A program made the position numbers and the translations under genes. A stretch of DNA of 64,000 bases from a virus. Its lineage: Duplodnaviria > Caudoviricetes. This document shows, piece after piece, positions 3,093 through 25,526 of this stretch. The notes below the pieces were generated by a model that was not told where the DNA came from, did not search any database, and saw only the letters and a program-made list of their open reading frames with translations. Each line of letters starts with the position of its first letter. The stretch's first letter is position 1. The stretch lies in the IMG/VR virus record IMGVR_UViG_2912838376_000002, positions 96,001-160,000 of that record; one strand, written 5' to 3'.

Positions 3093-5054
3093 TTAAGCCG
3101 TTTGTATCATGACCGTTTTATAATCGTCTGGAATCTCTCCCAAGAACGGACTAGGTTTTTGTCTAATCGGTTTCTGGGAACCATACTCATACTTAAAGGC
3201 AGAATGAGTTAGGTACAGTCGTTTTCCAGCTCTGGTCATAGCTACATACATTAAGCGTCGCTCTTCTTCCAAGTCTGAGAGTTTTTGCTTAGAACGATAA
3301 TGTGGGAACACATCATCTTCCGATCCAATCACGAATGTTTCAGGCCATTCTAAACCTTTAGCAGAGTGAACAGATGTTAAAGTTACAAAATCGTCCTCAT
3401 CTTCATCTGAATCCCCATCTAAAGTAATTTCGGAAACAAATTGAGCCAAGCTATTTATTTCTTTTTCTTGAGCATCCCAATGACGAGCATAATCACGTAA
3501 ATGAGTTACGTTTTCGATTCTAGCTTCATCTTCTTCTTTTTCCTTATCAAATTGACCCATAAAATCAGTCCTCTTAATAAGTGTTTGCATAAATTTAGTA
3601 GCAGAAAATTCACCGACTAATGCTAATTGACTAAGCTCTTGCATTAACGTCGCAAAGTCTTTAATCTTTGCAACTGTCGATTTATTAATCTTTGATTGTG
3701 CTGCTACTTCATCAATGTTTTGTAAAGCAACAAAGAACGGGATTCTTCTTTCATGAGCAAACGCATAGATTTTCTCAATTGTTGTTTTACCAATCTTACG
3801 ACTAGGTACATTGATAACTCTTTCAAGTGCATAATCATCTGTTAAGTTATGACTTGCACGAATATACGAAACAAGATCTTTGATTTCTTTTCTATCATAG
3901 AAAGAAGTCGTTCCTACAATCTTGTATGGAATATTCTCATCACGTAAAGCGAGTTCTAAATGCTTAGATTGGAAGTTCATTCGATAAAGAACAGCAAAGT
4001 CTTTCCAATCACATTGAGTCGCTTTTCTCATATTCACAATCATCCGAGCAACAAAATCTGCTTCCCTCGATGCATCATTGAATCGGAACACATGAATGTC
4101 ATCCCCTACTCCACTTACAGAGAATGCTTCTCTTTCTAATCTCATCTTGTTGTTACCAACTAATGAGTTGGAAGCATTAACGATTTTTTGAGTAGAACGA
4201 TAATTTTCTTGTAACAATATCAGCTGAGTCTCCGGATGGATCTTCTGATAGTTTAAGATGTTTTCAATTTTCGCTGCACGGAATGAATAAATAGATTGAT
4301 CCGCATCACCAACTAAGAAAATGTTTCCGTGTTTTTGAGATAACATTTCAATCAAATCAAATTGAATTTTGTTGGTGTCCTGAAATTCATCTATAAGTAT
4401 GTAGCGAAATGTGTTTTGATATCTTCCTAATAACTCTGGATTATTTTGAAATAAATGAACCGTTTTAAGAAGTAAGTCATCAAAATCAAAATAATTATGA
4501 ATCGCTTTTAAGTCTTCATATCGTTGATAAATATGAGAAACAGCAAGCTTCTCTTTATCTCCAGTATTTTCGGTTTGTGCTTGGCCAGGACTTATTCCGG
4601 CATTTTTCCATGTGGAAACTTGAGACATCAGATTGTAAACAATTGTCTTGTCCGCTTCTAGTCCTAATTGAACAGCTGCAGTCTTCATAATTGCCTTTTG
4701 GTCTGTATCATCCATTAGTGTAAACATATCTATTCCTAGATGATGAATGTTAGTAGATAGGATACGGTTACAGATACTATGGAATGTACCAATCCAGCTT
4801 TTAGAAGCCCGACTATCCATACCAGCTACTCGTTCCTTCATTTCTTTAGCAGATTTATTTGTAAATGTAATGGCAAGAATACGCCAAGGATCTACACCCT
4901 GCTCCAGTAAATAAGCAATACGAGTAGTTAAAACTTTTGTTTTTCCAGAACCAGCTCCAGCCAACACAAGGACTCGTCCTTCTGTTGTTAAAACTGCTCT
5001 TTGTTGGCTACTATTTAATGTACCCATCAAAGGATTCTCTACTGTAGCTAACAC
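3093..5054 (-). CDS. pcrA: UvrD/PcrA SF1 DNA helicase
   Basis: AGAGSGKT, TFTNK, DEFQD, GDADQSIY, NYRST, HSAKGLE, EERRLMYVAMTRA. Confidence 0.95.
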   Translation of the reverse strand: MLATVENPLMGTLNSSQQRAVLTTEGRVLVLAGAGSGKTKVLTTRIAYLLEQGVDPWRILAITFTNKSAKEMKERVAGMDSRASKSWIGTFHSICNRILSTNIHHLGIDMFTLMDDTDQKAIMKTAAVQLGLEADKTIVYNLMSQVSTWKNAGISPGQAQTENTGDKEKLAVSHIYQRYEDLKAIHNYFDFDDLLLKTVHLFQNNPELLGRYQNTFRYILIDEFQDTNKIQFDLIEMLSQKHGNIFLVGDADQSIYSFRAAKIENILNYQKIHPETQLILLQENYRSTQKIVNASNSLVGNNKMRLEREAFSVSGVGDDIHVFRFNDASREADFVARMIVNMRKATQCDWKDFAVLYRMNFQSKHLELALRDENIPYKIVGTTSFYDRKEIKDLVSYIRASHNLTDDYALERVINVPSRKIGKTTIEKIYAFAHERRIPFFVALQNIDEVAAQSKINKSTVAKIKDFATLMQELSQLALVGEFSATKFMQTLIKRTDFMGQFDKEKEEDEARIENVTHLRDYARHWDAQEKEINSLAQFVSEITLDGDSDEDEDDFVTLTSVHSAKGLEWPETFVIGSEDDVFPHYRSKQKLSDLEEERRLMYVAMTRAGKRLYLTHSAFKYEYGSQKPIRQKPSPFLGEIPDDYKTVMIQTA

Positions 5055-5480: not shown

Positions 5481-5699
5481 CTATTGCTTGGAATCTTTCG
5501 TCTTAGGCGCTACTTTATTATCTTTTACCAGTGTCATTACTGACGCTACAAAAGTAAGAACAGCCGCAATCTCCGTTTCACCTACAACAGGTAACGGTTG
5601 TTGACCTTTGGCAACCAAGTACTGGTTCAGCCAAGCTAACGCAAAGACAATAATACGAATTAATGCCCCTTTGTTATCCATAATAAATTCTTTGGACAT
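5481..5699 (-). CDS. SPP1-family phage holin
   Basis: DNKGALIRIIVFALAWLNQYL...PLPV...KDN; two TM segments; start moved to ATG 5699 behind GAGGTG. Confidence 0.8.
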   Translation of the reverse strand: MSKEFIMDNKGALIRIIVFALAWLNQYLVAKGQQPLPVVGETEIAAVLTFVASVMTLVKDNKVAPKTKDSKQ

Positions 5700-5810
5700 A
5701 TGCAACACCTCGAAAAAGAAAATATGGTACTTAGCTACCATAACGATTTACGGAAGCAAGAACCATATCATACTTTTTCTATTCCTAACTTAAACCACAT
5801 GAAACAAGTC

Positions 5811-6662
5811 TTATTGAGCCTGTGGCATGTTGAATAAGTTACCTGATTGTGGTTGCTGTGCTACTTGAGCTTGTTGCATCATACGATTATCGTGAATCGC
5901 TTTAACAGCCGCTCCAATTTCGTTAATTTTTACATTTGCAATTTCTTGTGTAAGATTAGCAGTAATCTTGAATTGCTCATAAATCTCTTTCATTTTAGCT
6001 ACTACAGCATCTTGTGAAGCCCCTGCACCTAATGATAATGTTGCCATTTGTGTTGCTAAATCACGTATTACAATCTTCTGTTGATCTGTAGCTGCATAAG
6101 GGTTCTGTTGCTGTGGTGGATTCTGATACTGCTGTTGTTGCTGATAATTCTGGTGTTGATAGTTTTGAGGAGCCTGATTAGGCCCCTTATCATCAGAATC
6201 AACTGGTAAATCTTCACCAGCGTATACATATAGTCCAAGTCCATGACCTGCAATAGCTTTCACCTTTGCACGTTGGATACTGTTATTGATGTCAAATGTT
6301 GTAGGTTTAGCGATTGGTTTATTACGGAAGTCTAATACTGGGAAAGGTTCAGAGACAGAAACACCATTTACGATAACTTCTACTTCTACAAAGTAGCCAA
6401 GAGCGGTTCTTATATATGGTACTAAAAGACCACCTGTTTCAGGCTCAGGGAAACGTTTTACATTAATCTTTGCATCAGGATGTTTTCGTTTAAGTTGTTC
6501 AACTGCATGAGCCCAACTCATATAAGAGAATCCATTTTTCTTTTCTAGGTATTTCGTTACATCCATACCTGCCATTTCCGCAAAATAGTTCTTTTCTAAT
6601 TTAACGGGTTCTTCTACAACGTCTTGCTCTACTGGTGGAGCTTCTGTAGTTACTGCTGTCAT
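5811..6662 (-). CDS. Sak/DUF1071-type single-strand annealing protein with Q-rich linker
   Basis: EKKNGFSYMSWAHA, DINNSIQRAKVKAIAGHGLGLYVYAGED; start at 6662 behind GGAGG. Confidence 0.85.
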   Translation of the reverse strand: MTAVTTEAPPVEQDVVEEPVKLEKNYFAEMAGMDVTKYLEKKNGFSYMSWAHAVEQLKRKHPDAKINVKRFPEPETGGLLVPYIRTALGYFVEVEVIVNGVSVSEPFPVLDFRNKPIAKPTTFDINNSIQRAKVKAIAGHGLGLYVYAGEDLPVDSDDKGPNQAPQNYQHQNYQQQQQYQNPPQQQNPYAATDQQKIVIRDLATQMATLSLGAGASQDAVVAKMKEIYEQFKITANLTQEIANVKINEIGAAVKAIHDNRMMQQAQVAQQPQSGNLFNMPQAQ

Positions 6663-17383: not shown

Positions 17384-17472
17384 TGGCAGAGAGGACGAGA
17401 TTCGAACTCGCGCACGTTTTACCGCCTACTCCCTTAGCAGGGGAGCCCCTTAAGCCACTTGGGTACCTCTCT
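17384..17472 (-). tRNA. tRNA-Ser(GCT)
   Basis: Cloverleaf, long variable arm, encoded CCA. Confidence 0.95.
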
Positions 17473-17612
17473 GTAGTATTATGGTTGCATTAGTTACCTA
17501 GAACTAGTTCATATCCTAACCAGTAAATAGTTGTTGTATTTCTAGTCTTATAAACTCTAGGGATTAAGTTGTTAAAGAATGACTTCAACTAATATCACCT
17601 CTAATATAATTC

Positions 17613-17687
17613 TGGTGAAGGTGGTGGGGAATTGACCCCACGGTCTCTGCTCTTTACCAGTCAGTCTCCAATTTCCGGTTCACCTTC
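17613..17687 (-). tRNA. Atypical tRNA-like RNA, anticodon undefined
   Basis: GAAGGTG/CACCTTC acceptor plus ACCA and a T-arm-like hairpin; anticodon arm non-canonical. Confidence 0.55.
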
Positions 17688-17696
17688 ATATATAAT

Positions 17697-17770
17697 TGGC
17701 AGGAGCAGTAGGAATCGAACCCACAACGGAGGTTTTGGAGACCTCTGTTTTACCTTTAAACTATACTCCT
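17697..17770 (-). tRNA. tRNA-Trp(CCA)
   Basis: Cloverleaf, loop CTCCAAA, encoded CCA. Confidence 0.95.
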
Positions 17771-17773
17771 ATG

Positions 17774-17860
17774 TGGTGGGAAAGGCAGGACTTGAACCTG
17801 CAATGTATCTTACGTCACGGTTTTACAGACCGCTTGCTTCACCAATTTGCATACTCGCCC
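17774..17860 (-). tRNA. tRNA-Tyr(GTA)
   Basis: Loop CTGTAAA, long variable arm, CCA. Confidence 0.9.
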
Positions 17861-17874
17861 ATATATAATATGAG

Positions 17875-18004
17875 TAGAACAATCAACAACTCACAGCTTA
17901 TCTTTCAGCGTAGTTTGTAGCAGACTGATCACCTACGCTTATTCAATACCCTAATTTATTCATACAAAGTCTGCACCACGAGGTCCTCGTATGAATTTGT
18001 TCTA
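17875..18004 (-). ncRNA. Candidate structured RNA with loop-loop complementarity
   Basis: Closing stem TAGAACAA/TTGTTCTA; two inner hairpins whose loops carry GCAGACT and AGTCTGC. Confidence 0.45.
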
Positions 18005-18179
18005 AAAAGGTTGAGGGCGTTAGCCCTCGTTGGTGTCATACATGTGTGTGTGAAAAATAATGTGAGTAGAGCATCGGAATACTTCTACTCTGTTCGCTAA
18101 GGAACGTAAAAACAATGTGTGTCCTGTTAACTGTACGCCTCCGAAGGGACACTTCTTTTAAGGGGAGACGCACAGCAGA

Positions 18180-18253
18180 TGCCGATGATAGGACTCGAAC
18201 CTACAACCTCCTGATTACAAGTCAGGCGCACTAGCCAATTGTGCTACACCGGC
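18180..18253 (-). tRNA. tRNA-Thr(TGT)
   Basis: Loop CTTGTAA; no encoded CCA. Confidence 0.95.
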
Positions 18254-18262
18254 ATATAAAAA

Positions 18263-18339
18263 TGGCGAGGGTGACGGGACTCGAACCCGCGACCTCTTGC
18301 GTGACAGGCAAGCGAACACTCCAACTGTTCTACACCCCC
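18263..18339 (-). tRNA. tRNA-Asp(GTC)
   Basis: Loop CTGTCAC, CCA. Confidence 0.95.
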
Positions 18340-18370
18340 ATAATAGAGGGGCCTAAGCCCCTGTTTGATA

Positions 18371-18916
18371 TTAGTGATACAATGATTTGTGTACAGACAA
18401 GATATTAATCTTATCTTCTTCTGTGATAAGACCTTTTGCAAATGCATCTTCTACATGTTGATCTGTAGCATGCCAGTAGAATCGTGCGCTCGCTAAGTAG
18501 CGTACAATATCAAATGAAGTTCCAGTTACTCCATGCAAAGTTGCTTGCGTTTTGTCTATGTCGTAATGTTGAGAACGAGGACCAGATGCACCAACTAAGT
18601 AATGTCCATCTAGCATTTCTTGTGTAATTAAGTCGCCTACTTTGATCGTAGACAGGTCTCCTTGATAAGTCCCTCGCTGCAATTTATTCCCCGAAAGGTT
18701 TGTATAACTTGCACCTAGTCGCACATGAGGTACGAATTGATTAGCATATTCATCATAAACTTGTTCAGGGTATGAAGGCATCTGCCAATCTTGCACCATA
18801 GGATTTTGATTAAAATCATACTCATAGCGCCAAGGAATCTCAATTCGCTTTGTAATTACTTTCGTTTCTCGATCATACTCTAGCACTAAATCATAAAGGT
18901 TTGTCAATAATATCAA
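18371..18916 (-). CDS. Hypothetical protein inside tRNA array with XkdX-like C-terminus
   Basis: 181-aa ORF, AGGAG RBS; ends VEDAFAKGLITEEDKINIL. Confidence 0.65.
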   Translation of the reverse strand: MILLTNLYDLVLEYDRETKVITKRIEIPWRYEYDFNQNPMVQDWQMPSYPEQVYDEYANQFVPHVRLGASYTNLSGNKLQRGTYQGDLSTIKVGDLITQEMLDGHYLVGASGPRSQHYDIDKTQATLHGVTGTSFDIVRYLASARFYWHATDQHVEDAFAKGLITEEDKINILSVHKSLYH

Positions 18917-18955
18917 ACTCCTTCTAGTTGTATTAGAAACTTATAAAAGTTCTAA

Positions 18956-19028
18956 CGCCCCTACCAGGATTCGAACCTGGACTCTAAGCTTAGAAGGTTC
19001 ATGTGCTATCCTATTACACCATAGGGGC
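18956..19028 (-). tRNA. tRNA-Arg(TCT)
   Basis: Loop CTTCTAA, GTTCGAATC T-arm. Confidence 0.9.
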
Positions 19029-19057
19029 AAAGTGAAACACCTAAACATAAACAAAAG

Positions 19058-19131
19058 TCCGGATGACACGATTCGAACATGCGACCCCTTGCTCCCAAAG
19101 CAAGTGCTCTACCAAGCTGAGCTACATCCGG
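19058..19131 (-). tRNA. tRNA-Pro(TGG)
   Basis: Loop TTTGGGA. Confidence 0.9.
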
Positions 19132-19135
19132 ATGA

Positions 19136-19211
19136 TGGTGGAACTGACAGGACTTGAACCTGCGACATCCTGCGTGCAAGGCAGGCGCTCTCCCAGCTGA
19201 GCTACAATCCC
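19136..19211 (-). tRNA. tRNA-Ala(TGC)
   Basis: Loop CTTGCAC, CCA. Confidence 0.9.
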
Positions 19212-19215
19212 AAGA

Positions 19216-19289
19216 CGGGTTTTACTAGGATTCGAACCTAGGAATTCTGTGGCCATTCAGTGCACCAACCTCTTCTTGCTTTAAAACCC
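19216..19289 (-). tRNA. Atypical tRNA-like RNA
   Basis: GGGTTTT/AAAACCC acceptor, perfect CTAGG-TTCGAAT-CCTAG T-arm, aberrant D and anticodon arms. Confidence 0.55.
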
Positions 19290-19299
19290 ATAATATAAT

Positions 19300-19374
19300 T
19301 GGCTGGGAATGATAGATTCGAACTACCGCATCAGAGAGTCAAAGTCCCTTGCCTTACCGCTTGGCTAATTCCCA
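19300..19374 (-). tRNA. tRNA-Gln(TTG)
   Basis: Loop CTTTGAC, CCA. Confidence 0.95.
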
Positions 19375-19384
19375 ATATAATAAA

Positions 19385-19458
19385 TGGCTCTTGATTGACT
19401 CGAACAATCGACTTCTACCTTATGAGGGTAGCGCTCTAACCAACTGAGCTAAAGAGCC
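19385..19458 (-). tRNA. tRNA with CAT anticodon (Met elongator or Ile2)
   Basis: Loop CTCATAA. Confidence 0.85.
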
Positions 19459-19461
19459 AGG

Positions 19462-19536
19462 CACCGAAGGCAGGAGTCGAACCTACACGCCACCGATTGT
19501 TACATCGTTGAGTCTGCCTGTTGAACTTACTTCGGT
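19462..19536 (-). tRNA. Atypical tRNA-like RNA
   Basis: ACCGAAG/CTTCGGT acceptor, GTAGG-TTCGACT-CCTGC T-arm, non-canonical CGAT-GTAACA-ATCG anticodon arm. Confidence 0.55.
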
Positions 19537-19537
19537 A

Positions 19538-19611
19538 TGGTGCTAGAAAGAAAAATCAGAAGAACAACTTCCTCTGAACCAAGAGACGGCTTGGACCCTC
19601 CCGAATCTAGC
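19538..19611 (-). tRNA. Degenerate tRNA-like RNA
   Basis: GCTAGA/TCTAGC acceptor plus ACCA and tRNA length, but no T-loop consensus. Confidence 0.4.
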
Positions 19612-19622
19612 ATAATATGAGA

Positions 19623-19696
19623 TGACGTATGCCGGATTCGAACCGGCGAATATCGGATAGAAAGTCCGATGACTTAGGCCTCTTGTCGAATACGCC
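19623..19696 (-). tRNA. tRNA-Glu(TTC)
   Basis: Loop CTTTCTA. Confidence 0.9.
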
Positions 19697-19821
19697 ATGA
19701 AAGATATAATCACAATCCGACACCCATTAGCGAAAGAAAATACCGAATGGGGATTCAGTAACACAAAATATAAAATAAAGGAGTGATTGAATGAGACATG
19801 GATGCCGGATTCTAATTACGG

Positions 19822-19896
19822 TTGCTAACGCTCTGGAATCGAACCAGATTTGCAAGGGTTATGAGCCCAAGTGAGATTGCCAACCTCCCGCCAGCT
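19822..19896 (-). tRNA. Divergent initiator-like tRNA-Met(CAT)
   Basis: GGG/CCC anticodon stem, loop CTCATAA, unpaired first position. Confidence 0.65.
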
Positions 19897-19909
19897 ATAA
19901 TATATAAGA

Positions 19910-19983
19910 TGGAACTTGTAGGACTCGAACCTACGACCGGACGGTTATGAGCCGTCTGCTCTGACCAACTGAGCTAAAGATCC
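19910..19983 (-). tRNA. tRNA-Ile2(CAT)
   Basis: Closely resembles Bacillus Ile2 (GACGGCTCATAACCGTC). Confidence 0.85.
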
Positions 19984-19990
19984 ATAAATA

Positions 19991-20062
19991 AGCACCTTAC
20001 GGGAATCGAACCCGTACCGTCTGATTGGAAGTCAGAAATCATAGCCATTAGACCAAAAGTGC
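19991..20062 (-). tRNA. tRNA-Gly(TCC)
   Basis: Loop CTTCCAA, U discriminator. Confidence 0.9.
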
Positions 20063-20068
20063 ATGATA

Positions 20069-20143
20069 AGCAGAAGACAGGATTTGAACCTGCGAGATAA
20101 TTGGGTTGCAGCCAATCGCGTTAAGCCACTTCGCCACATCTGC
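20069..20143 (-). tRNA. tRNA-Cys(GCA)
   Basis: Loop CTGCAAC, U discriminator. Confidence 0.9.
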
Positions 20144-20152
20144 ATAATAAAA

Positions 20153-20334
20153 TGGCGTGCATGGTCGGAATCGAACCGCCCTTCTGGACTATGACCTCCT
20201 GCTCTGATACAGTGGCTTACCATAGTCAATCTCCTCACCAATCTAACCGTAACGACTTATCGTTCATCTATGTTTCAGAATACATAGGGCCCCAATAAGC
20301 TTTCGAGAAAGATTCGTTTCTACCTGAGCTGCAC
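20153..20334 (-). ncRNA. 182-nt RNA with tRNA acceptor, T-arm and CCA around an expanded body
   Basis: 5' GTGCA pairs with 3' TGCAC-G-CCA; GGTTCGATTCC T-loop; three inner hairpins. Confidence 0.6.
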
Positions 20335-20340
20335 ATAATA

Positions 20341-20428
20341 TGGCGGAGGGTGAGGGACTCGAACCCCCATCGGTTTTACCCTACGACAGTTTTCAAGACT
20401 GTTCTCTTACCAATTAGAGTAACCCTCC
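20341..20428 (-). tRNA. tRNA-Ser(TGA)
   Basis: Loop CTTGAAA, long variable arm, CCA. Confidence 0.95.
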
Positions 20429-20436
20429 ACATTAGA

Positions 20437-20516
20437 TACGGACGGAGAGACTCGAACTCTCACGCCGAAGCACTAGATCCTAAGTCTAGCGTGTCTGCCA
20501 ATTCCACCACGTCCGC
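20437..20516 (-). tRNA. tRNA-Leu(TAG)
   Basis: Loop CTTAGGA, variable arm. Confidence 0.95.
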
Positions 20517-20522
20517 ATAATT

Positions 20523-20597
20523 TGGCTCTGACGGTAGGATTCGAACCTACGACCTTTCGGTTAACAGCCGAGCGCACTACCACTGTGCTACGCCAGA
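20523..20597 (-). tRNA. tRNA-Asn(GTT)
   Basis: Loop CTGTTAA, CCA. Confidence 0.95.
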
Positions 20598-20646
20598 ATA
20601 ATAATATTTAACAACATAAGTACTTATACTGTGATTTTGTTTTCAT

Positions 20647-20675
20647 AACATAAGCACTTCTTTTTTATTTGTCAA
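20647..20675 (-). promoter_or_regulatory. tRNA-array promoter TTGACA-N17-TATGTT
   Basis: AAGTGCTTATGTT, 50 bp upstream of the first tRNA. Confidence 0.7.
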
Positions 20676-20690
20676 CATTTACTTTAATTA

Positions 20691-21011
20691 ATTGCTACCT
20701 ACACAGCCTAGCAGTGATTGAAGGTGTGCATAAAGACCATTTTACTGTTATCTAGGGTTTTTATAATCGTTTATCTTTGTGTTTTAAACTTTATAAAATA
20801 AGAACTTTGAACCCTAATCCTTACACTTTAAACCTTGAACTTTGAGCTTTTCTCACCTGTTTTGATTATTTCTTAATCAAATTTTAATTCGTCCTATACG
20901 AATATTCTCTTTGTAAGTACGCCCATGTATTGGTCATAAATGTTGGAGCTGGGAATTTAACGTCCCCCGGCAAGACGTATACACGTTTTAACGTTCCGTG
21001 TAAGTAGCAAT
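20691..21011 (-). ncRNA. Candidate 320-nt RNA with heptad repeats
   Basis: 14-bp closing stem 20691-20704/20998-21011; seven tandem AA(A/G)G-type heptamers at 20802-20850. Confidence 0.6.
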
Positions 21012-21023
21012 ATTAGTTATAGA

Positions 21024-21650
21024 TTAAGCAGAAATCTCAATGAAAGTAGTGGCATTCGCCTCTGACTTAACTGAGTCTACTTCAATCAAGAATGCATTAA
21101 TTTCTGTTTCAAGCTTCTCAATCTCTTTACGGATTTCGATTGGATCAACCACTTTTGGATTGTAACGTTTTAAGAAGTTTTCCGTAATTTCTTCAACTTC
21201 TGCAGCATGATTCTTACGATCTTTAGAACCAAGGTCTGCTTCTAAACGCTTATCTAAGCGATTCTCCATTTGTTGCTTCTCAATCTCCATCTTTTGATTG
21301 ACTACAGCTAATTGACGTTTTAATTCATTAAGAAGTGATTGCTTGTATTCGATGAATTCTTGTTGATCAATCGCTTCTGCAATTGTCATTTCAACACCAG
21401 CAATATTCACTTTCGTCGTTGCGTTCGCCAAGATTAGCTTTGATTTGATTTCGTTGCGGCGCTTAATTAAGTCCGTTACAGACTGATAACCAGCTGCAGC
21501 AAGTTCTTCAAATTCTTTTGTTGATTGATACCCTTTTGGTTTTTCTTCACCAATTTGGTATGTTACGTATTGCTTGTCATTAATAGAAGAAAGAATACGT
21601 TTATTTAACATTTTTAACTCTGCTAATGCACGATGTAATGATAATTTCAT
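21024..21650 (-). CDS. Long coiled-coil protein, DIP1984/DUF6847-like
   Basis: LHRALAELKMLNKRI...MTIAEAI...VDP...EVDSVKSEANATT pattern; family call from memory. Confidence 0.7.
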   Translation of the reverse strand: MKLSLHRALAELKMLNKRILSSINDKQYVTYQIGEEKPKGYQSTKEFEELAAAGYQSVTDLIKRRNEIKSKLILANATTKVNIAGVEMTIAEAIDQQEFIEYKQSLLNELKRQLAVVNQKMEIEKQQMENRLDKRLEADLGSKDRKNHAAEVEEITENFLKRYNPKVVDPIEIRKEIEKLETEINAFLIEVDSVKSEANATTFIEISA

Positions 21651-21904
21651 ATATATTGCCTCCCTTTATTCTCATAGGTAAATTAAGGGCTCCTACCACT
21701 CCCTTAATACTAGTGAACTATCACTAGGGTCTTCCTCCTCACAGCGAAAACCATCCTAATATCTATTGAAAAAAACGTTGAATGCAATTACTAGATTACT
21801 AATTCAACCCTATGAGTAAAGAAAGTCAATACCTTTTTTAAAATTTTTAAAAGTTTTTTTGCAAATAAAAAAGCAGACACAAAATGTGCCTACCTTTTCG
21901 AGAA

Positions 21905-22888
21905 TTAATATCTTGTTAGATTCGCATAAGATAGAGAAACCCAACCATCATGCACTCTCGCCCATCCACCGCTAATATCGTAGATGTTCCATGTGTCTCC
22001 ACTTGAGATAGTACGAATAATATCTCCGTCTGTCGAAGGTTTAGTGCGGACGTTTAAGTTTGCAGTAGTTGTGATTTTTCCGATTGGATTACGTTTTCCT
22101 GCTAAGTCTTCAGGTGTTCCATTAGAAGAACCTCCTGCAGGTGTAAACTTAACATAAGCAGGTCCTGCTGATACCCACTGGTTTCCTCCAACGTTGTACA
22201 TGCCGTTAGATAATCCCCAAGTCTGGTATGTTTCGCCTTTCTTCACAGTTTTAACAACTCTTGAATCAAAGCTAGCAGATTCACGAACGTTTAATTCTGC
22301 AACAAGAATCTCAACAACACCAATACCATCTGTAGAAGGTGGTGGTGTTACTGGCGGCGCTACAGTTGAACCATTAAGTTCAGCTTGTACTGCTGCTAAG
22401 AAACTATTCCATCGTCCTTCATCTAGGATACGGTGCGGACAATTCTTAACTGTTCTAGAATTACCGTTTTTAACACCAATCTCTGTCCAACTCTTATGAG
22501 TACGAACACGATCAATTCCCCATCCGCGCTCTCTTAGTAATTGAGCAACGAATTTAATAGCTAATGCTTCAGCTTTTGTATATCTTGAACCGCCAGATAA
22601 TGAGTAACAGATTTCAACACCGATAGATTTTCGGTTTCCGTTACCACCACCATCACCACAATGCCAAGCATTACGATCAACCGGAATACCTTGAATAACT
22701 TCGATATCATCTACTGCGAAGTGGAATGAAACCTCGTTATTGTTTCCGATCATGTAGTTTACCTCGTTCTTAGCAGGCGCATCATTATAAGTGTTATGCA
22801 CTGTAATGTACTCTGCTTTCATAGAATAAGGACACTTGATTGGGTATTTGCTTGTAGCCACAAGATTTTGTTTAACTGAAATGGCCAT
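21905..22888 (-). CDS. N-acetylmuramoyl-L-alanine amidase (endolysin) with two SH3b domains
   Basis: ITVHNT, SFHFAVDD, AWHCGDG, SIGVEIC, KNCPH; LNVR repeats. Confidence 0.95.
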   Translation of the reverse strand: MAISVKQNLVATSKYPIKCPYSMKAEYITVHNTYNDAPAKNEVNYMIGNNNEVSFHFAVDDIEVIQGIPVDRNAWHCGDGGGNGNRKSIGVEICYSLSGGSRYTKAEALAIKFVAQLLRERGWGIDRVRTHKSWTEIGVKNGNSRTVKNCPHRILDEGRWNSFLAAVQAELNGSTVAPPVTPPPSTDGIGVVEILVAELNVRESASFDSRVVKTVKKGETYQTWGLSNGMYNVGGNQWVSAGPAYVKFTPAGGSSNGTPEDLAGKRNPIGKITTTANLNVRTKPSTDGDIIRTISSGDTWNIYDISGGWARVHDGWVSLSYANLTRY

Positions 22889-22961: not shown

Positions 22962-25526
22962 TTAAGCTACTTTATTGAACTCTCCTAAACGAAGAGAGAT
23001 AACATATCCATGTTGCTCTTGTGTTGCTCCTTCAATGCCTAATAGAGTTGCTGAATGTTGGTTGCCGTCCAACAATAGAGCTTCAGTCATAGGCACTTGC
23101 CCTTGTGCTACAACTGCTCCGTTTTTACCTACCATTGTTACTAGTTTATTTGTTACAGGGCCGTTTCCTAATTGTAACTCACTCTTTAGGTCAATTCGTT
23201 TGCCGACGGATTGTGCCCAAGATTGCGGTGAGTAGCCCGTCGCAAATCGAATAACTGTTTCAGTCTGAGTTAAATTGCCTGCACCGTCTTGTAAATTGCC
23301 CATTACTTGAACGGTTTGTTTTTGCTCAGTTTGTGTATGGATCCCTGTTTCTTTTAGTGTTTGATTAATAACACCTGCAACTAATCCATTTGCCGCTTCT
23401 GTCAACTCTTGACGAGAAGTTGGTAATACTTGCGTTTGATTACGAATTTCTTGAACAGCTCCACCCATATCTTTTGCTTGAGAATGAACTAGTTCTTGAT
23501 ATCCTTGTGTGTAGTTAGTACCTGCAGTAGGATTGATTAATTGTTTCGCTTCTACAGGATTGTATTCTTTATTCATTAACGCTTCCGCAGATACCGTTTC
23601 TTGTGGAGCGTTTACTACTGGTGCATTTTCAACTACTGGAGTTGTTTGAGTTTCTACAGGAGTAGCTTCTGTCTTAACAGCTGCATGTGCATTAGCTAAT
23701 TCTTGTTGTCTCTCAGCATATACTTCTTCATTAATTGGTAAGAAACTTGTTACTTCACGAGCTTCCCCTTCTTTTTCATAAGGGAATAATGCTACTTCTT
23801 CTAATCGATCAAAGACTAAGAATAGTGATTTACGTTGAGTTCCTTGGTCAACTAATAAGTTAACGTCTGTAATACGAGCTAACCATTTAGAATTACGCAT
23901 TGTTTCTTTTGTTAGTGTGTTTGATGCTGTTGCCATTTCAAATACATCATACATTAATGAAACACGTTTCAGTTGTTCTTCTGGACGAGTGAATAATCCT
24001 AAGTGAACAACTTGTCCAACCATTGCTTTAGCAGCTTCTAAGCTAAACATAGATTCTGCCATTGGGTGTAATGGTAATGCAATTTCATTAGTTAAAGGGA
24101 AATCAGATGGGACTTCACCTTTAGTTACTACTTCTACTGATGTTTGTTCAGTTTGTGTTTCTGCTGCAGGTGTTTGAGAAACTGGCGCCGGCTGCACAGT
24201 TTGTTCAATAACACTAGCATCTAATTTAAATTGAGCGTATGTTTTTCCATCTTGCTCTTTCATCGTGTAATCAAGAATAGTAGCCATGTAGTTGTTTGGT
24301 TTAAGAGCTGTTTTCTCGTCAACACCAACTACAACTGTACCGTTAGCATTCTGCGTAAATAATCGAGCTATTCCATCTGCAGAACTAATTCCGTATTTTT
24401 GAGCCATTACAGCTTCTTTTTGATTTGCGAATGTACCAACAAAGCTTGGATGAAGCATGAAACTAGATACGATAAATGGTTTCTCTTCCACTTCTTCTTG
24501 TGTTGTTGGTTCTACTACTTGAACAGGTTTCTCTTTAGCTACAACCTCTTTAGATTCAGCTTCTTTAACGTGTTCTGGAACTTCACCTTTTTCTAAAAGA
24601 TTTGTAACGTTCTTTACAACCCAGTGATCCTTCTCTAATAATTGAAGGTTTTTATATGTAACATTTGTGTAACGAGCACGAGAACGCTTAGTTACTTCTC
24701 CAAATGAAACTACATCACAAGTAATGAATCCATCGTTCTTAAGATGTTTCTGTACATGCTCTGGGAATTGCTCTAACTTAATTGTCTTAGCAATAGCAAC
24801 TACTTCATCATCTAAGCAAAGCATTAACATGAATGAACGCTTCTCGCGGAAGATAACACCACCACGCTCAATGATTTGATTCATGTGTTCTTCTTCTTTA
24901 GCTGTAGAAATAAGACCAAACTCTTCTACATACTCAGTTTCATCTACTGGTGCTTCTACTGTTTTTACTGTTTCTTCCGTTACCGGTTCTACTTTTACTG
25001 TTGGTTCTTCAATTGGTGTGTCGATTGGTAATTCTACTTGCTCAGCTTCTTCTAATTCTGTTTTAGTTTCGCCTTCCATATCTTCAACAGTTTGAATCTC
25101 TTCAGTATTCATGTCAGCTGCTTCGTATTTTACAGCCGCTTCATCTTCTTTAACTTTAAGAAGTTCTTCTGCTAATTTAGATTCTTCTTCTTTAGCTTCT
25201 TGTTCCATTTGTTGATTGTATAGAGCAGCTGCGTTGTTTTGGTCTAGTTCTGCTCCTAATACTGTTTCCTCTGTTACAGGAAGAACAACATCCTCTGTAA
25301 CTGTTTCAACTGGTGCTACTGTTTTTTCTACATCTGGCACTACTACAGTGTTAGATGATAATGCACTTAGGTATTGTTCAATAACTGTTAACATGCGTTG
25401 CTTAACAGCATTGTCCTCTTCGATGTTTACTCGTTTTAATAAGTGATCAAATTCTTGTACGTTCATTAATATTCTCTCCTTTTCATATGAATCGATTTGT
25501 TTTTGAATTGAATTTACTGTTTTCAT
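22962..25526 (-). CDS. Large acidic hypothetical protein
   Basis: 854-aa ORF with E/T/V/P-rich linkers, GAGGAG RBS. Confidence 0.85.
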   Translation of the reverse strand: MKTVNSIQKQIDSYEKERILMNVQEFDHLLKRVNIEEDNAVKQRMLTVIEQYLSALSSNTVVVPDVEKTVAPVETVTEDVVLPVTEETVLGAELDQNNAAALYNQQMEQEAKEEESKLAEELLKVKEDEAAVKYEAADMNTEEIQTVEDMEGETKTELEEAEQVELPIDTPIEEPTVKVEPVTEETVKTVEAPVDETEYVEEFGLISTAKEEEHMNQIIERGGVIFREKRSFMLMLCLDDEVVAIAKTIKLEQFPEHVQKHLKNDGFITCDVVSFGEVTKRSRARYTNVTYKNLQLLEKDHWVVKNVTNLLEKGEVPEHVKEAESKEVVAKEKPVQVVEPTTQEEVEEKPFIVSSFMLHPSFVGTFANQKEAVMAQKYGISSADGIARLFTQNANGTVVVGVDEKTALKPNNYMATILDYTMKEQDGKTYAQFKLDASVIEQTVQPAPVSQTPAAETQTEQTSVEVVTKGEVPSDFPLTNEIALPLHPMAESMFSLEAAKAMVGQVVHLGLFTRPEEQLKRVSLMYDVFEMATASNTLTKETMRNSKWLARITDVNLLVDQGTQRKSLFLVFDRLEEVALFPYEKEGEAREVTSFLPINEEVYAERQQELANAHAAVKTEATPVETQTTPVVENAPVVNAPQETVSAEALMNKEYNPVEAKQLINPTAGTNYTQGYQELVHSQAKDMGGAVQEIRNQTQVLPTSRQELTEAANGLVAGVINQTLKETGIHTQTEQKQTVQVMGNLQDGAGNLTQTETVIRFATGYSPQSWAQSVGKRIDLKSELQLGNGPVTNKLVTMVGKNGAVVAQGQVPMTEALLLDGNQHSATLLGIEGATQEQHGYVISLRLGEFNKVA

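Follow-up and report, generated by a model that had tools for sequence, protein, structure and literature searches.

Among the described systems closest to the locus analysed here, OLE RNA occurs mainly in Bacillota, has the partner proteins OapA, OapB and OapC, and its function long remained unknown. In systems of the ToxIN type, RNA made of tandem repeats of ~34–45 nucleotides (nt), which are processed, precedes the toxin gene, and a terminator separates the two. TRAP and HutP, two small ring-forming proteins rich in beta structure, control termination through mRNA leaders; TRAP reads triplet repeats with 2–3-nt spacers, and HutP sites recur every 7 nt. The omega repressor of pSM19035 binds arrays of 7-base-pair (bp) repeats, and T4 rnaC and rnaD are stable RNAs of the phage tRNA region. 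PMC9241854 describes ROOL and GOLLD RNAs as adjoining tRNA genes in phages and reports two abundant long non-coding RNAs (lncRNAs) beside the tRNA genes of Staphylococcus phage K; PMC12286853 names OLE and describes oligomeric cages formed by ROOL and GOLLD. Here we analyse a 64,000-nt stretch of DNA, referred to as the window, which is part of a 244,829-bp virus record (IMG/VR record IMGVR_UViG_2912838376_000002, 36% GC). In this window the gene for a 208-amino-acid (aa) helical protein is followed on the same strand by a structured RNA of 321 nt, which we call the heptad-track RNA after its array of phased 7-nt units. We propose, with a probability of roughly one half, that gene and RNA constitute a self-contained two-part module for a dedicated ribonucleoprotein (RNP).

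The heptad-track RNA follows the partner gene in phages

Scans of viral_contigs and metagenome_contigs with the single protein returned no relative; an alignment used as query then succeeded and gave 149 relatives in viral_contigs, from which 80 loci were kept. A DNA search of positions 20600–21700 against GenBank phages produced no match. At the protein level, 746 of 50,697 GenBank phage records contained a homologue by tblastn, none reaching 60% identity; they include T5 (T5.085) and phages of Salmonella, Pseudomonas, Vibrio, Bacillus, Klebsiella, Erwinia and Lactococcus. Of 86 viral or GenBank loci, 40 of them training rows, 83 gave one same-strand match downstream of the gene with an nhmmer profile of the track and 3′ domain of the RNA; the misses were L064, L084 and L076, and the contig of L076 ends at the gene. 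The covariance model R1, which covers the 3′ domain, located this domain where expected in 68 of 70 sources (65 at E <0.01, L084 included); it missed L006 and L037, whose tracks had been found by nhmmer, and L064 scored weakly (E 0.8). The RNA was likewise present in all four of the most divergent GenBank homologues examined, those of Lactococcus phiL47, a Clostridioides phage, a T4-like Acinetobacter phage and Salmonella 7-11. The best sequence patterns that we could derive for the RNA caught only 28–30 of 71 known members and were too unspecific for an RNA-first scan.

An unannotated gap of 290–490 nt follows the gene in 8 of 10 GenBank phage records examined. In the records of T5, BM15, Kioshi, phiPsa374 and Thalassa a gap of 360–490 nt comes directly after the homologue, and the A-rich central track recurs in these gaps; a terminator-like hairpin ends the gap in phiPsa374, Thalassa and two Bacillus phages. 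The T5 gap (L003:4630–5072, 440 nt, after T5.085), in which only a promoter is annotated, holds the RNA. The heptad-track RNA accounts for the unannotated gap after the gene in those 8 records. In 41 loci the RNA starts 5–85 nt after the stop codon. A wider separation is seen in Bacillus phage KLEB27-3 (L002), where the RNA (6133–6337) lies in a 1.1-kb unannotated gap (5533–6642), 1.5 kb downstream of the partner gene and separated from it by three small annotated open reading frames (ORFs); that it is retained so far from the gene speaks for a function in trans.

At least one tRNA gene, always on the strand of the partner gene, is found in 57 of 81 unique viral or GenBank phage loci, within 1 kb in 50 of them. 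Since this link to tRNA is confined to virulent phages, we regard it as context and not as a defining feature. One viral contig combines the two kinds of RNA more closely: in L050 (3124–3550) a tRNA-like gene (ARAGORN 'tRNA-???', 3213–3287) lies inside the variable region of the RNA, and a tRNA-Lys(UUU) gene begins 6 nt past the RNA 3′ end. If such an insert were processed, the RNA would fall into two halves unless these were joined by the closing helix.

The RNA structure is conserved through compensatory changes

A gapless helix search covering 70 unique downstream regions revealed in 41 of them a long-range helix of 11–21 bp with a shared junction signature (5′ ...CG, 3′ GC-UG...). Five of the 41 regions, which show minor departures from the signature, were included manually, and the 29 uncaptured regions were excluded from the MAFFT alignment of the 41 RNAs (A4), each of which was thus picked because a stem had been found in it. 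The closing-helix sequences differ widely among the 41 loci. When the closing helix P1, the family helix P2 and the helix P3 were evaluated together on A4, 86.0% of the cells were paired versus 61.0% in shuffles, 273 cells were changed on both sides versus 87.5, and the covariation score was 0.607 versus 0.195, with none of 500 shuffles reaching 0.607 and slid controls at 0.09–0.17. Two-sided changes occur at 12 of the 14 pairs of P1 and at all 8 pairs of P2 (A4 columns 48–55 with 643–651), while P3 has the consensus CCnnG/CnnGG. P1 contains many G-U pairs, and their frequency fixes the strand of the RNA. Because the rows of A4 were chosen for a stem, the paired percentage of P1 partly reflects that choice, a bias that does not touch P2 and P3.

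We also used a model-fitted alignment (A6) of 64 distinct sequences that were not chosen by P1, which leans towards the structure fitted to it. Here P3 was 98.1% paired with many pair types, P3b 81.5% and P4 67.8%, a value that makes the register of P4 uncertain. RNAalifold on the MAFFT alignments recovered P1 and P3 only, and P2, P3b and P4 needed a structure given by hand. In the closest relative of the window locus, L008, whose protein is 69% identical, the gene DNA is 68.6% identical, and in the RNA identity amounts to 95% in the 5′ domain, 91% in the 3′ domain, 73% in the track and 55% in the variable middle; relative to L008, the RNA core is more conserved than the coding sequence. Comparison across the family thus shows the structure of the RNA and its strand.

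A strictly phased heptad array is kept across the family

The family track reads U-Y-A-A-R-G-N seven to eight times. Its U is 83–100% conserved (at least 93% in six of seven units) and its first A 93–100%, each recurring at every seventh column. No insertion or deletion interrupts the 56 track columns in 28 of the 41 RNAs, and in L009 and L022 exactly 7 nt are missing, corresponding to one whole unit. In regions downstream of the gene (71 viral, 76 bacterial), strictly phased U-N-A-R runs have a median length of 4 units, and the longest has 9; in upstream and shuffled controls the medians are 1–2 and the maximum is 4. We found no conserved helix within the tracks in the family alignment. A preliminary description of the window, prepared from its letters without database searches, had singled out a closing stem and a 7-nt periodicity downstream of the gene; among homologues both proved to be kept far above expectation, the periodicity as seven to eight phased units family-wide. 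We also considered whether the heptads mimic Shine-Dalgarno sequences, are complementary to anticodon loops or T-loops, or act as Hfq A-R-N triplets; the consensus supports none of these ideas.

Gene and RNA form an accessory cassette in bacteria

The same alignment query detected 77 loci in bacterial genomes, mostly of Bacillales; the hosts comprise the Bacillus pumilus group, B. haynesii, B. paralicheniformis, Lysinibacillus, Solibacillus, Exiguobacterium, Brevibacillus, Paenibacillus, others, and metagenome-assembled genomes. The RNA lies downstream of the gene in 75 of the 77 loci, and a tRNA gene is present in only 7. In B. altitudinis and Lysinibacillus the module is surrounded by housekeeping rather than prophage genes. 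A promoter-like site stands ahead of the gene in Lysinibacillus (L148), and terminator-like hairpins stand just past the RNA in L120 and L148. Both flanks are common to 11, 8 and 6 species in three groups, indicating synteny within groups, and 383 locus pairs have the module in common and the flanks not. Between B. haynesii and B. altitudinis (L094/L120), for instance, similarity extends only from 2501, the start codon, to ~3404/3386, the RNA end, that is over ~0.9 kb.

Scanning three whole bacterial genomes with R1 gave exactly one match in each, beside the gene. Among 49 genomes of one genus, 28 carry gene and RNA, 20 carry neither and one carries the RNA only; two RNAs of this set had been missed by the strict filter and were recovered by local search. 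Thus, the shared cassette ends together with the joint presence and absence in one genus support a two-part module well. The bacterial gene and RNA are an accessory chromosomal cassette of ~0.9 kb with a predicted promoter and a predicted terminator of its own, and, as judged from sequence comparison, gene and RNA are shown to be inherited as one unit.

Two bacterial loci deserve separate mention. At L171:1225–1720 (genome G044) an orphan 3′ domain of the RNA (E 1.4e-8) is accompanied by a short ORF resembling a transposase end at the place of the gene, and this is probably a decaying locus. Paenibacillus xylaniclasticus has two copies of the module (L098, L099), and directly past the one in L098 (3522–3650) stands a skipping-rope RNA (RF02924; 54.1 bits, above the gathering score).

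Architecture of the RNA in the window

The features of the window locus are collected in Table 1. The stop codon of the gene, TAA, occupies 21026–21024 on the minus strand, and the 5′ arm of the RNA begins at 21011, 12 nt past it; the 426-nt gap 20598–21023 contains no ORF of at least 30 aa on either strand. The preliminary description had read here a closed RNA of ~320 nt with a 14-bp stem starting 12 nt after the stop, and seven heptads at 20850–20802. The stem is present at exactly these positions (21011–20998 with 20704–20691, one pair being G-U) and extends to 16 bp (21011–20996 with 20706–20691), the outer ends of P1 enclose 321 nt, and the seven heptads stand as they had been written. 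The 3′ strand of P3 is followed by one C and then by the P1 3′ arm, so that the P3 and P1 helices abut. In the 5′ domain an H-type pseudoknot is probable; it was seen by eye in the rows of the window, L008, L013 and L018, and stands outside the counted pairs.

Table 1. Features of the window that belong to, or flank, the gene and the heptad-track RNA
Feature	Position	Strand	Remarks
Amidase endolysin gene	21905–22888	minus	Upstream of the 208-aa gene; ORF list and family matches
Helical partner protein gene, 208 aa	21024–21650	minus	ORF; phrog_1491; T5.085 homologue
Structured RNA, 321 nt between outer ends of closing helix P1	20691–21011	minus	
P1 5′ arm, 16 nt	20996–21011	minus	Family signature at inner end, ...CG then AAAAC-like bases
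P2 5′ strand	20979–20984	minus	Long-range pseudoknot with the loop of hairpin P4
5′ domain	20951–20978	minus	Probable H-type pseudoknot, two interleaved short helices
Variable region, two local hairpins (20887–20903, 20862–20880)	20862–20903	minus	Least conserved part
Heptad track 1, 7–8 phased U-Y-A-A-R-G-N units	20800–20852	minus	Contains the heptads of the preliminary description (20802–20850)
Track 2, looser A-rich heptad continuation	20758–20799	minus	Ends in a conserved A-rich run into P3
3′ domain	20707–20756	minus	P3, P3b, hairpin P4, P2 3′ strand
P3	20752–20756 with 20707–20711	minus	In 3′ domain
P3b	20744–20747 with 20712–20715	minus	In 3′ domain
P4 hairpin	20736–20739 with 20722–20725	minus	In 3′ domain
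P2 3′ strand	20726–20731	minus	In 3′ domain
P1 3′ arm, 16 nt	20691–20706	minus	Near-invariant GGCUG directly before; 20704–20708 overlaps arm
Promoter-like site, consensus −35 hexamer, 17-nt spacer	20647–20675	minus	Between RNA and first tRNA; outside RNA
Cluster of 18 tRNA genes	17384–20597	minus	Directly downstream, same strand; context, outside module

The window RNA is matched by R1 at 20704–20771 (36.1 bits, E 3e-5) and by the nhmmer profile with E 2.6e-23, and it is present in a single copy in its own genome. The window locus has the features proposed for the family, namely a P1 (here of 16 bp) whose end follows ...CG/(G)GC-UG, P3 and the heptad array, on the same strand and downstream of a phrog_1491 gene. 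Within this one genome, the heptad track reaches 29 of 42 lag-7 matches, compared with a genome mean of 11.0 (standard deviation 3.0), and is the only 49-nt segment of the 244,829-bp genome to do so; Tandem Repeats Finder reports periods of 7 and 14 for it. When the mononucleotides of the 426-nt gap were shuffled 200 times, two of the shuffles contained a gapless long-range stem of at least 16 bp (mean 10.5, standard deviation 1.4). The fold of 333 nt has z = −4.0, with 0 of 100 shuffles equally stable; in the fold of the T5 RNA, the closing helix measures 20 bp and z is −5.7. The decisive support for the RNA is comparative rather than single-genome.

As for the surroundings, the promoter-like site is also kept in the closest relative, and no terminator-like site was found in the 426-nt gap of the window, the interval between the gene and the RNA included. 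The partner gene apparently has a 5′ leader of ~170 nt with a strong hairpin (21651–21830, minus strand, read by eye), which lies downstream of a terminator-like hairpin ending the endolysin gene; the promoter scan flagged no site there. A protein of 854 aa, acidic and of low complexity, is encoded upstream of the endolysin gene at 22962–25526 (minus strand) and has no Pfam or PHROG match. The tRNA cluster includes a 181-aa ORF that matches no family (18371–18916, minus strand) and, between two tRNA genes, a sub-threshold tRNA-like match (19462–19536, minus strand; 26.5 bits versus a gathering score of 29).

The partner protein is predicted to form long helical hairpins

The 208-aa protein matches phrog_1491 over its full length (E 4e-61, residues 2–207 on profile positions 4–210 of 211). 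Searches of Pfam, NCBIfam and PADLOC (cut-off E <0.005 for PADLOC) gave no match, nothing significant was obtained against PDB sequences (best E 0.036, 3kdq), and a protein atlas search returned only hypothetical viral clusters and a weak lead to DUF6847. The AlphaFold2 model, built from a 59-sequence alignment with a mean predicted local distance difference test score of 90.4, consists of long helical hairpins, with a small sheet of four strands where their ends come together, which fits the coiled-coil protein of the preliminary description. Its best PDB fold match is again 3kdq, a protein of unknown function (Z 9.8, root-mean-square deviation 8.0 over 151 residues), and the remaining fold matches are generic helical bundles. 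The protein is mildly acidic, with an isoelectric point of 5.69 (family median 5.72), and the conserved basic residues of the family are R7, K13, R18, R64, R65, K69, K97 and K146.

Public records label both phrog_1491 and T5.085 'tail fiber protein'. No Pfam domain was found, the model is one of helical hairpins, and no test that we ran supports the label; the neighbours of T5.085 in T5 are early, nucleotide-metabolism and tRNA genes. The label is probably wrong for this protein family.

A proposed ribonucleoprotein and its alternatives

In the RNP that we propose, gene and RNA would be transcribed together, the RNA forming the 3′ portion of the transcript. P1, the P2 pseudoknot and P3 would form a compact core gripping both ends of an A-rich strand of ~100 nt, along which the seven to eight strictly phased heptads would be followed by looser ones. 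Several copies of the helical protein might then bind the array, one protomer per heptad, probably through the conserved basic 'head' around the small beta-sheet (R7, K13, R18, R64, R65, K69, K97), and the assembly so formed would be of defined size. Heptads that serve as repeated protein-binding sites are consistent with the strictness of the phase, with the absence of complete units from some RNAs, with a scaffold that is closed and with a cassette that moves. The preliminary description had also arrived at a two-part RNP: its two-part nature is borne out by the cassette ends and by the joint presence and absence, and the binding itself stays inferred. The likeness to TRAP that it invoked does not extend beyond analogy, as repeat period and protein fold both differ.

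Several observations weigh against the RNP. The paired percentage of P1 owes something to the choice of the A4 rows. By thermodynamic folding the tracks have a mean unpaired probability of only 0.41–0.46 and are not clearly single-stranded. A mildly acidic protein would be unusual for one that coats RNA, and neither Pfam nor the fold searches revealed a recognisable RNA-binding domain in it. One genome keeps the RNA while the gene is replaced by an apparent insertion-sequence remnant. Moreover, co-inheritance would also fit a cis-acting element of the 3′ untranslated region (3′-UTR) or an RNA acting alone with a protein helper.

A large RNA with multiple pseudoknots, which in phages sits in tRNA clusters on their strand as ROOL and GOLLD do, which is accompanied by an acidic protein lacking an RNA-binding domain and which persists as an orphan in one genome, might indeed work alone or with a universal host partner such as the ribosome, a tRNA or an RNase, be it as a ROOL/GOLLD-like RNA-only assembly, a decoy or a sponge, leaving to the protein the role of helper, chaperone or regulator. 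We hold this to be unlikely, if credible, since gene and RNA are gained, lost and transferred jointly, tRNA genes are rare beside the bacterial copies, and hosts that are both Gram-positive and Gram-negative require the host partner to be universal. An RNP would also form in a conflict cassette, whether a toxin–antitoxin or abortive-infection pair whose RNA keeps the protein neutralised in a type III-like manner, or an anti-defence module. Such a role, which we find rather harder to credit, would suit a small autonomous cassette with a repetitive RNA that occurs in phages and chromosomes, is patchy (28 of 49 genomes in one genus), moves between genera without its flanks and occupies accessory tRNA-rich regions in phages. 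However, the layout is reversed relative to ToxIN, with the RNA downstream and no terminator between, the repeats measure 7 nt versus ~36 nt, PADLOC gave no match at its cut-off, the fold is helical and unlike a small beta-rich endoribonuclease, and the module is syntenic and stable across the 11, 8 and 6 species of three groups.

If the RNA were a cis-acting 3′-UTR element for stability, termination or autoregulation, with no function in trans, its start so close behind the stop codon in 41 loci, the transcript that it apparently shares with the gene and cassette ends that coincide with gene plus RNA would all be expected. A core of 260–430 nt with pseudoknots and seven to eight heptads exceeds the needs of known 3′-UTR stabilisers, though, and three ORFs and 1.5 kb separate gene and RNA in KLEB27-3; together with a core more conserved than the coding sequence, this makes such an element improbable in our judgement. 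It is more improbable by far that the heptads are a DNA element, that is, iterated operator or centromere protein sites flanked by incidental helices: contiguous 7-bp direct repeats are a known format for DNA binding, but the compensatory helices contain many G-U pairs, which are A-C mismatches on the other strand, and the orientation of the array to the gene is invariant. Finally, a chance low-complexity spacer with a processing hairpin before the tRNA cluster could be entertained for a region of 31% GC in which the stem alone was matched in 2 of 200 shuffles; this explanation, to which we attach next to no weight, is refuted by the comparative results (co-occurrence, covariation, joint presence and absence) and by bacterial copies without a nearby tRNA cluster.

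Beyond the dedicated RNP as such, we tentatively consider a wider reading, possible but at present doubtful: the module might be a widespread unrecognised RNP of phages, T5 included, and of bacteria, mainly Bacillota, in which the heptads act as a 'ruler' setting the copy number of the protein, so that an assembly of defined size is templated by RNA, and which in virulent phages is tied to tRNA supply or tRNA conflict. We know of no RNA-templated protein assembly of defined size in bacteria. If the proposal holds, it adds to the large structured RNAs a new class that has its own protein family. Strictly phased heptads in a closed RNA scaffold are an unusual design that points to multivalent, counted binding, and the presence of the module, unannotated, in T5 and in culturable Bacillus, Lysinibacillus and Exiguobacterium makes it directly testable.

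Comparison with known systems

Searching Rfam 15 with the RNA of the window, five phage loci and six bacterial loci gave no match at E ≤1, families such as ROOL, GOLLD, OLE, RNase P, transfer-messenger RNA (tmRNA) and 6S included; ARAGORN found no tmRNA in the window, and we found no literature on the RNA or its partner protein in the open papers searched, taken without their supplements. The heptad-track RNA and its protein thus seem to be an undescribed pair, absent from Rfam, Pfam, PADLOC and the literature searched. The phage K lncRNAs lnc001 and lnc002 (L088, L089) were considered as relatives and rejected, as neither nhmmer (E ≤10) nor R1 gave a hit in them. One of these phage K lncRNA regions carries a near-threshold match to DUF3800-I (43.4 bits versus 44.2).

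Short phased purine-rich repeats are shared with the RNAs read by TRAP and HutP, whose reader is a homo-oligomer on single-stranded RNA; the present system differs in its 7-nt period (as far as TRAP is concerned), in a stand-alone scaffold RNA placed after the gene, and in a helical-hairpin protein without a Pfam match. With type III toxin–antitoxin systems such as ToxIN it has in common a two-part cassette of protein and repetitive RNA found in phages, plasmids and chromosomes, and in ToxIN, too, several proteins bind one RNA. Unlike in ToxIN, the RNA is downstream in all loci, the repeat period is 7 or 14 nt within a closed scaffold, and the protein, all-helical in its model, has no ToxN or AbiQ match in Pfam or PADLOC. 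As a non-coding RNA in a phage tRNA region it recalls T4 rnaC and rnaD and T5 RNAX (NC_005859), although it occupies a different position in T5 from RNAX, is unannotated and is defined by partner gene and heptad array. ROOL and GOLLD are likewise ornate phage or prophage RNAs beside tRNA genes; they are larger and form RNA-only cages without a dedicated protein, whereas the heptad-track RNA travels with a protein and its bacterial copies usually lack tRNA genes. With OLE it shares the character of a large ornate bacterial non-coding RNA that has a dedicated protein gene adjacent and occurs mainly in Bacillota, and it is set apart from OLE by a soluble helical partner without a Pfam family, by a length of ~320 nt with phased heptads, and by its presence also in phages of Gram-negative hosts.

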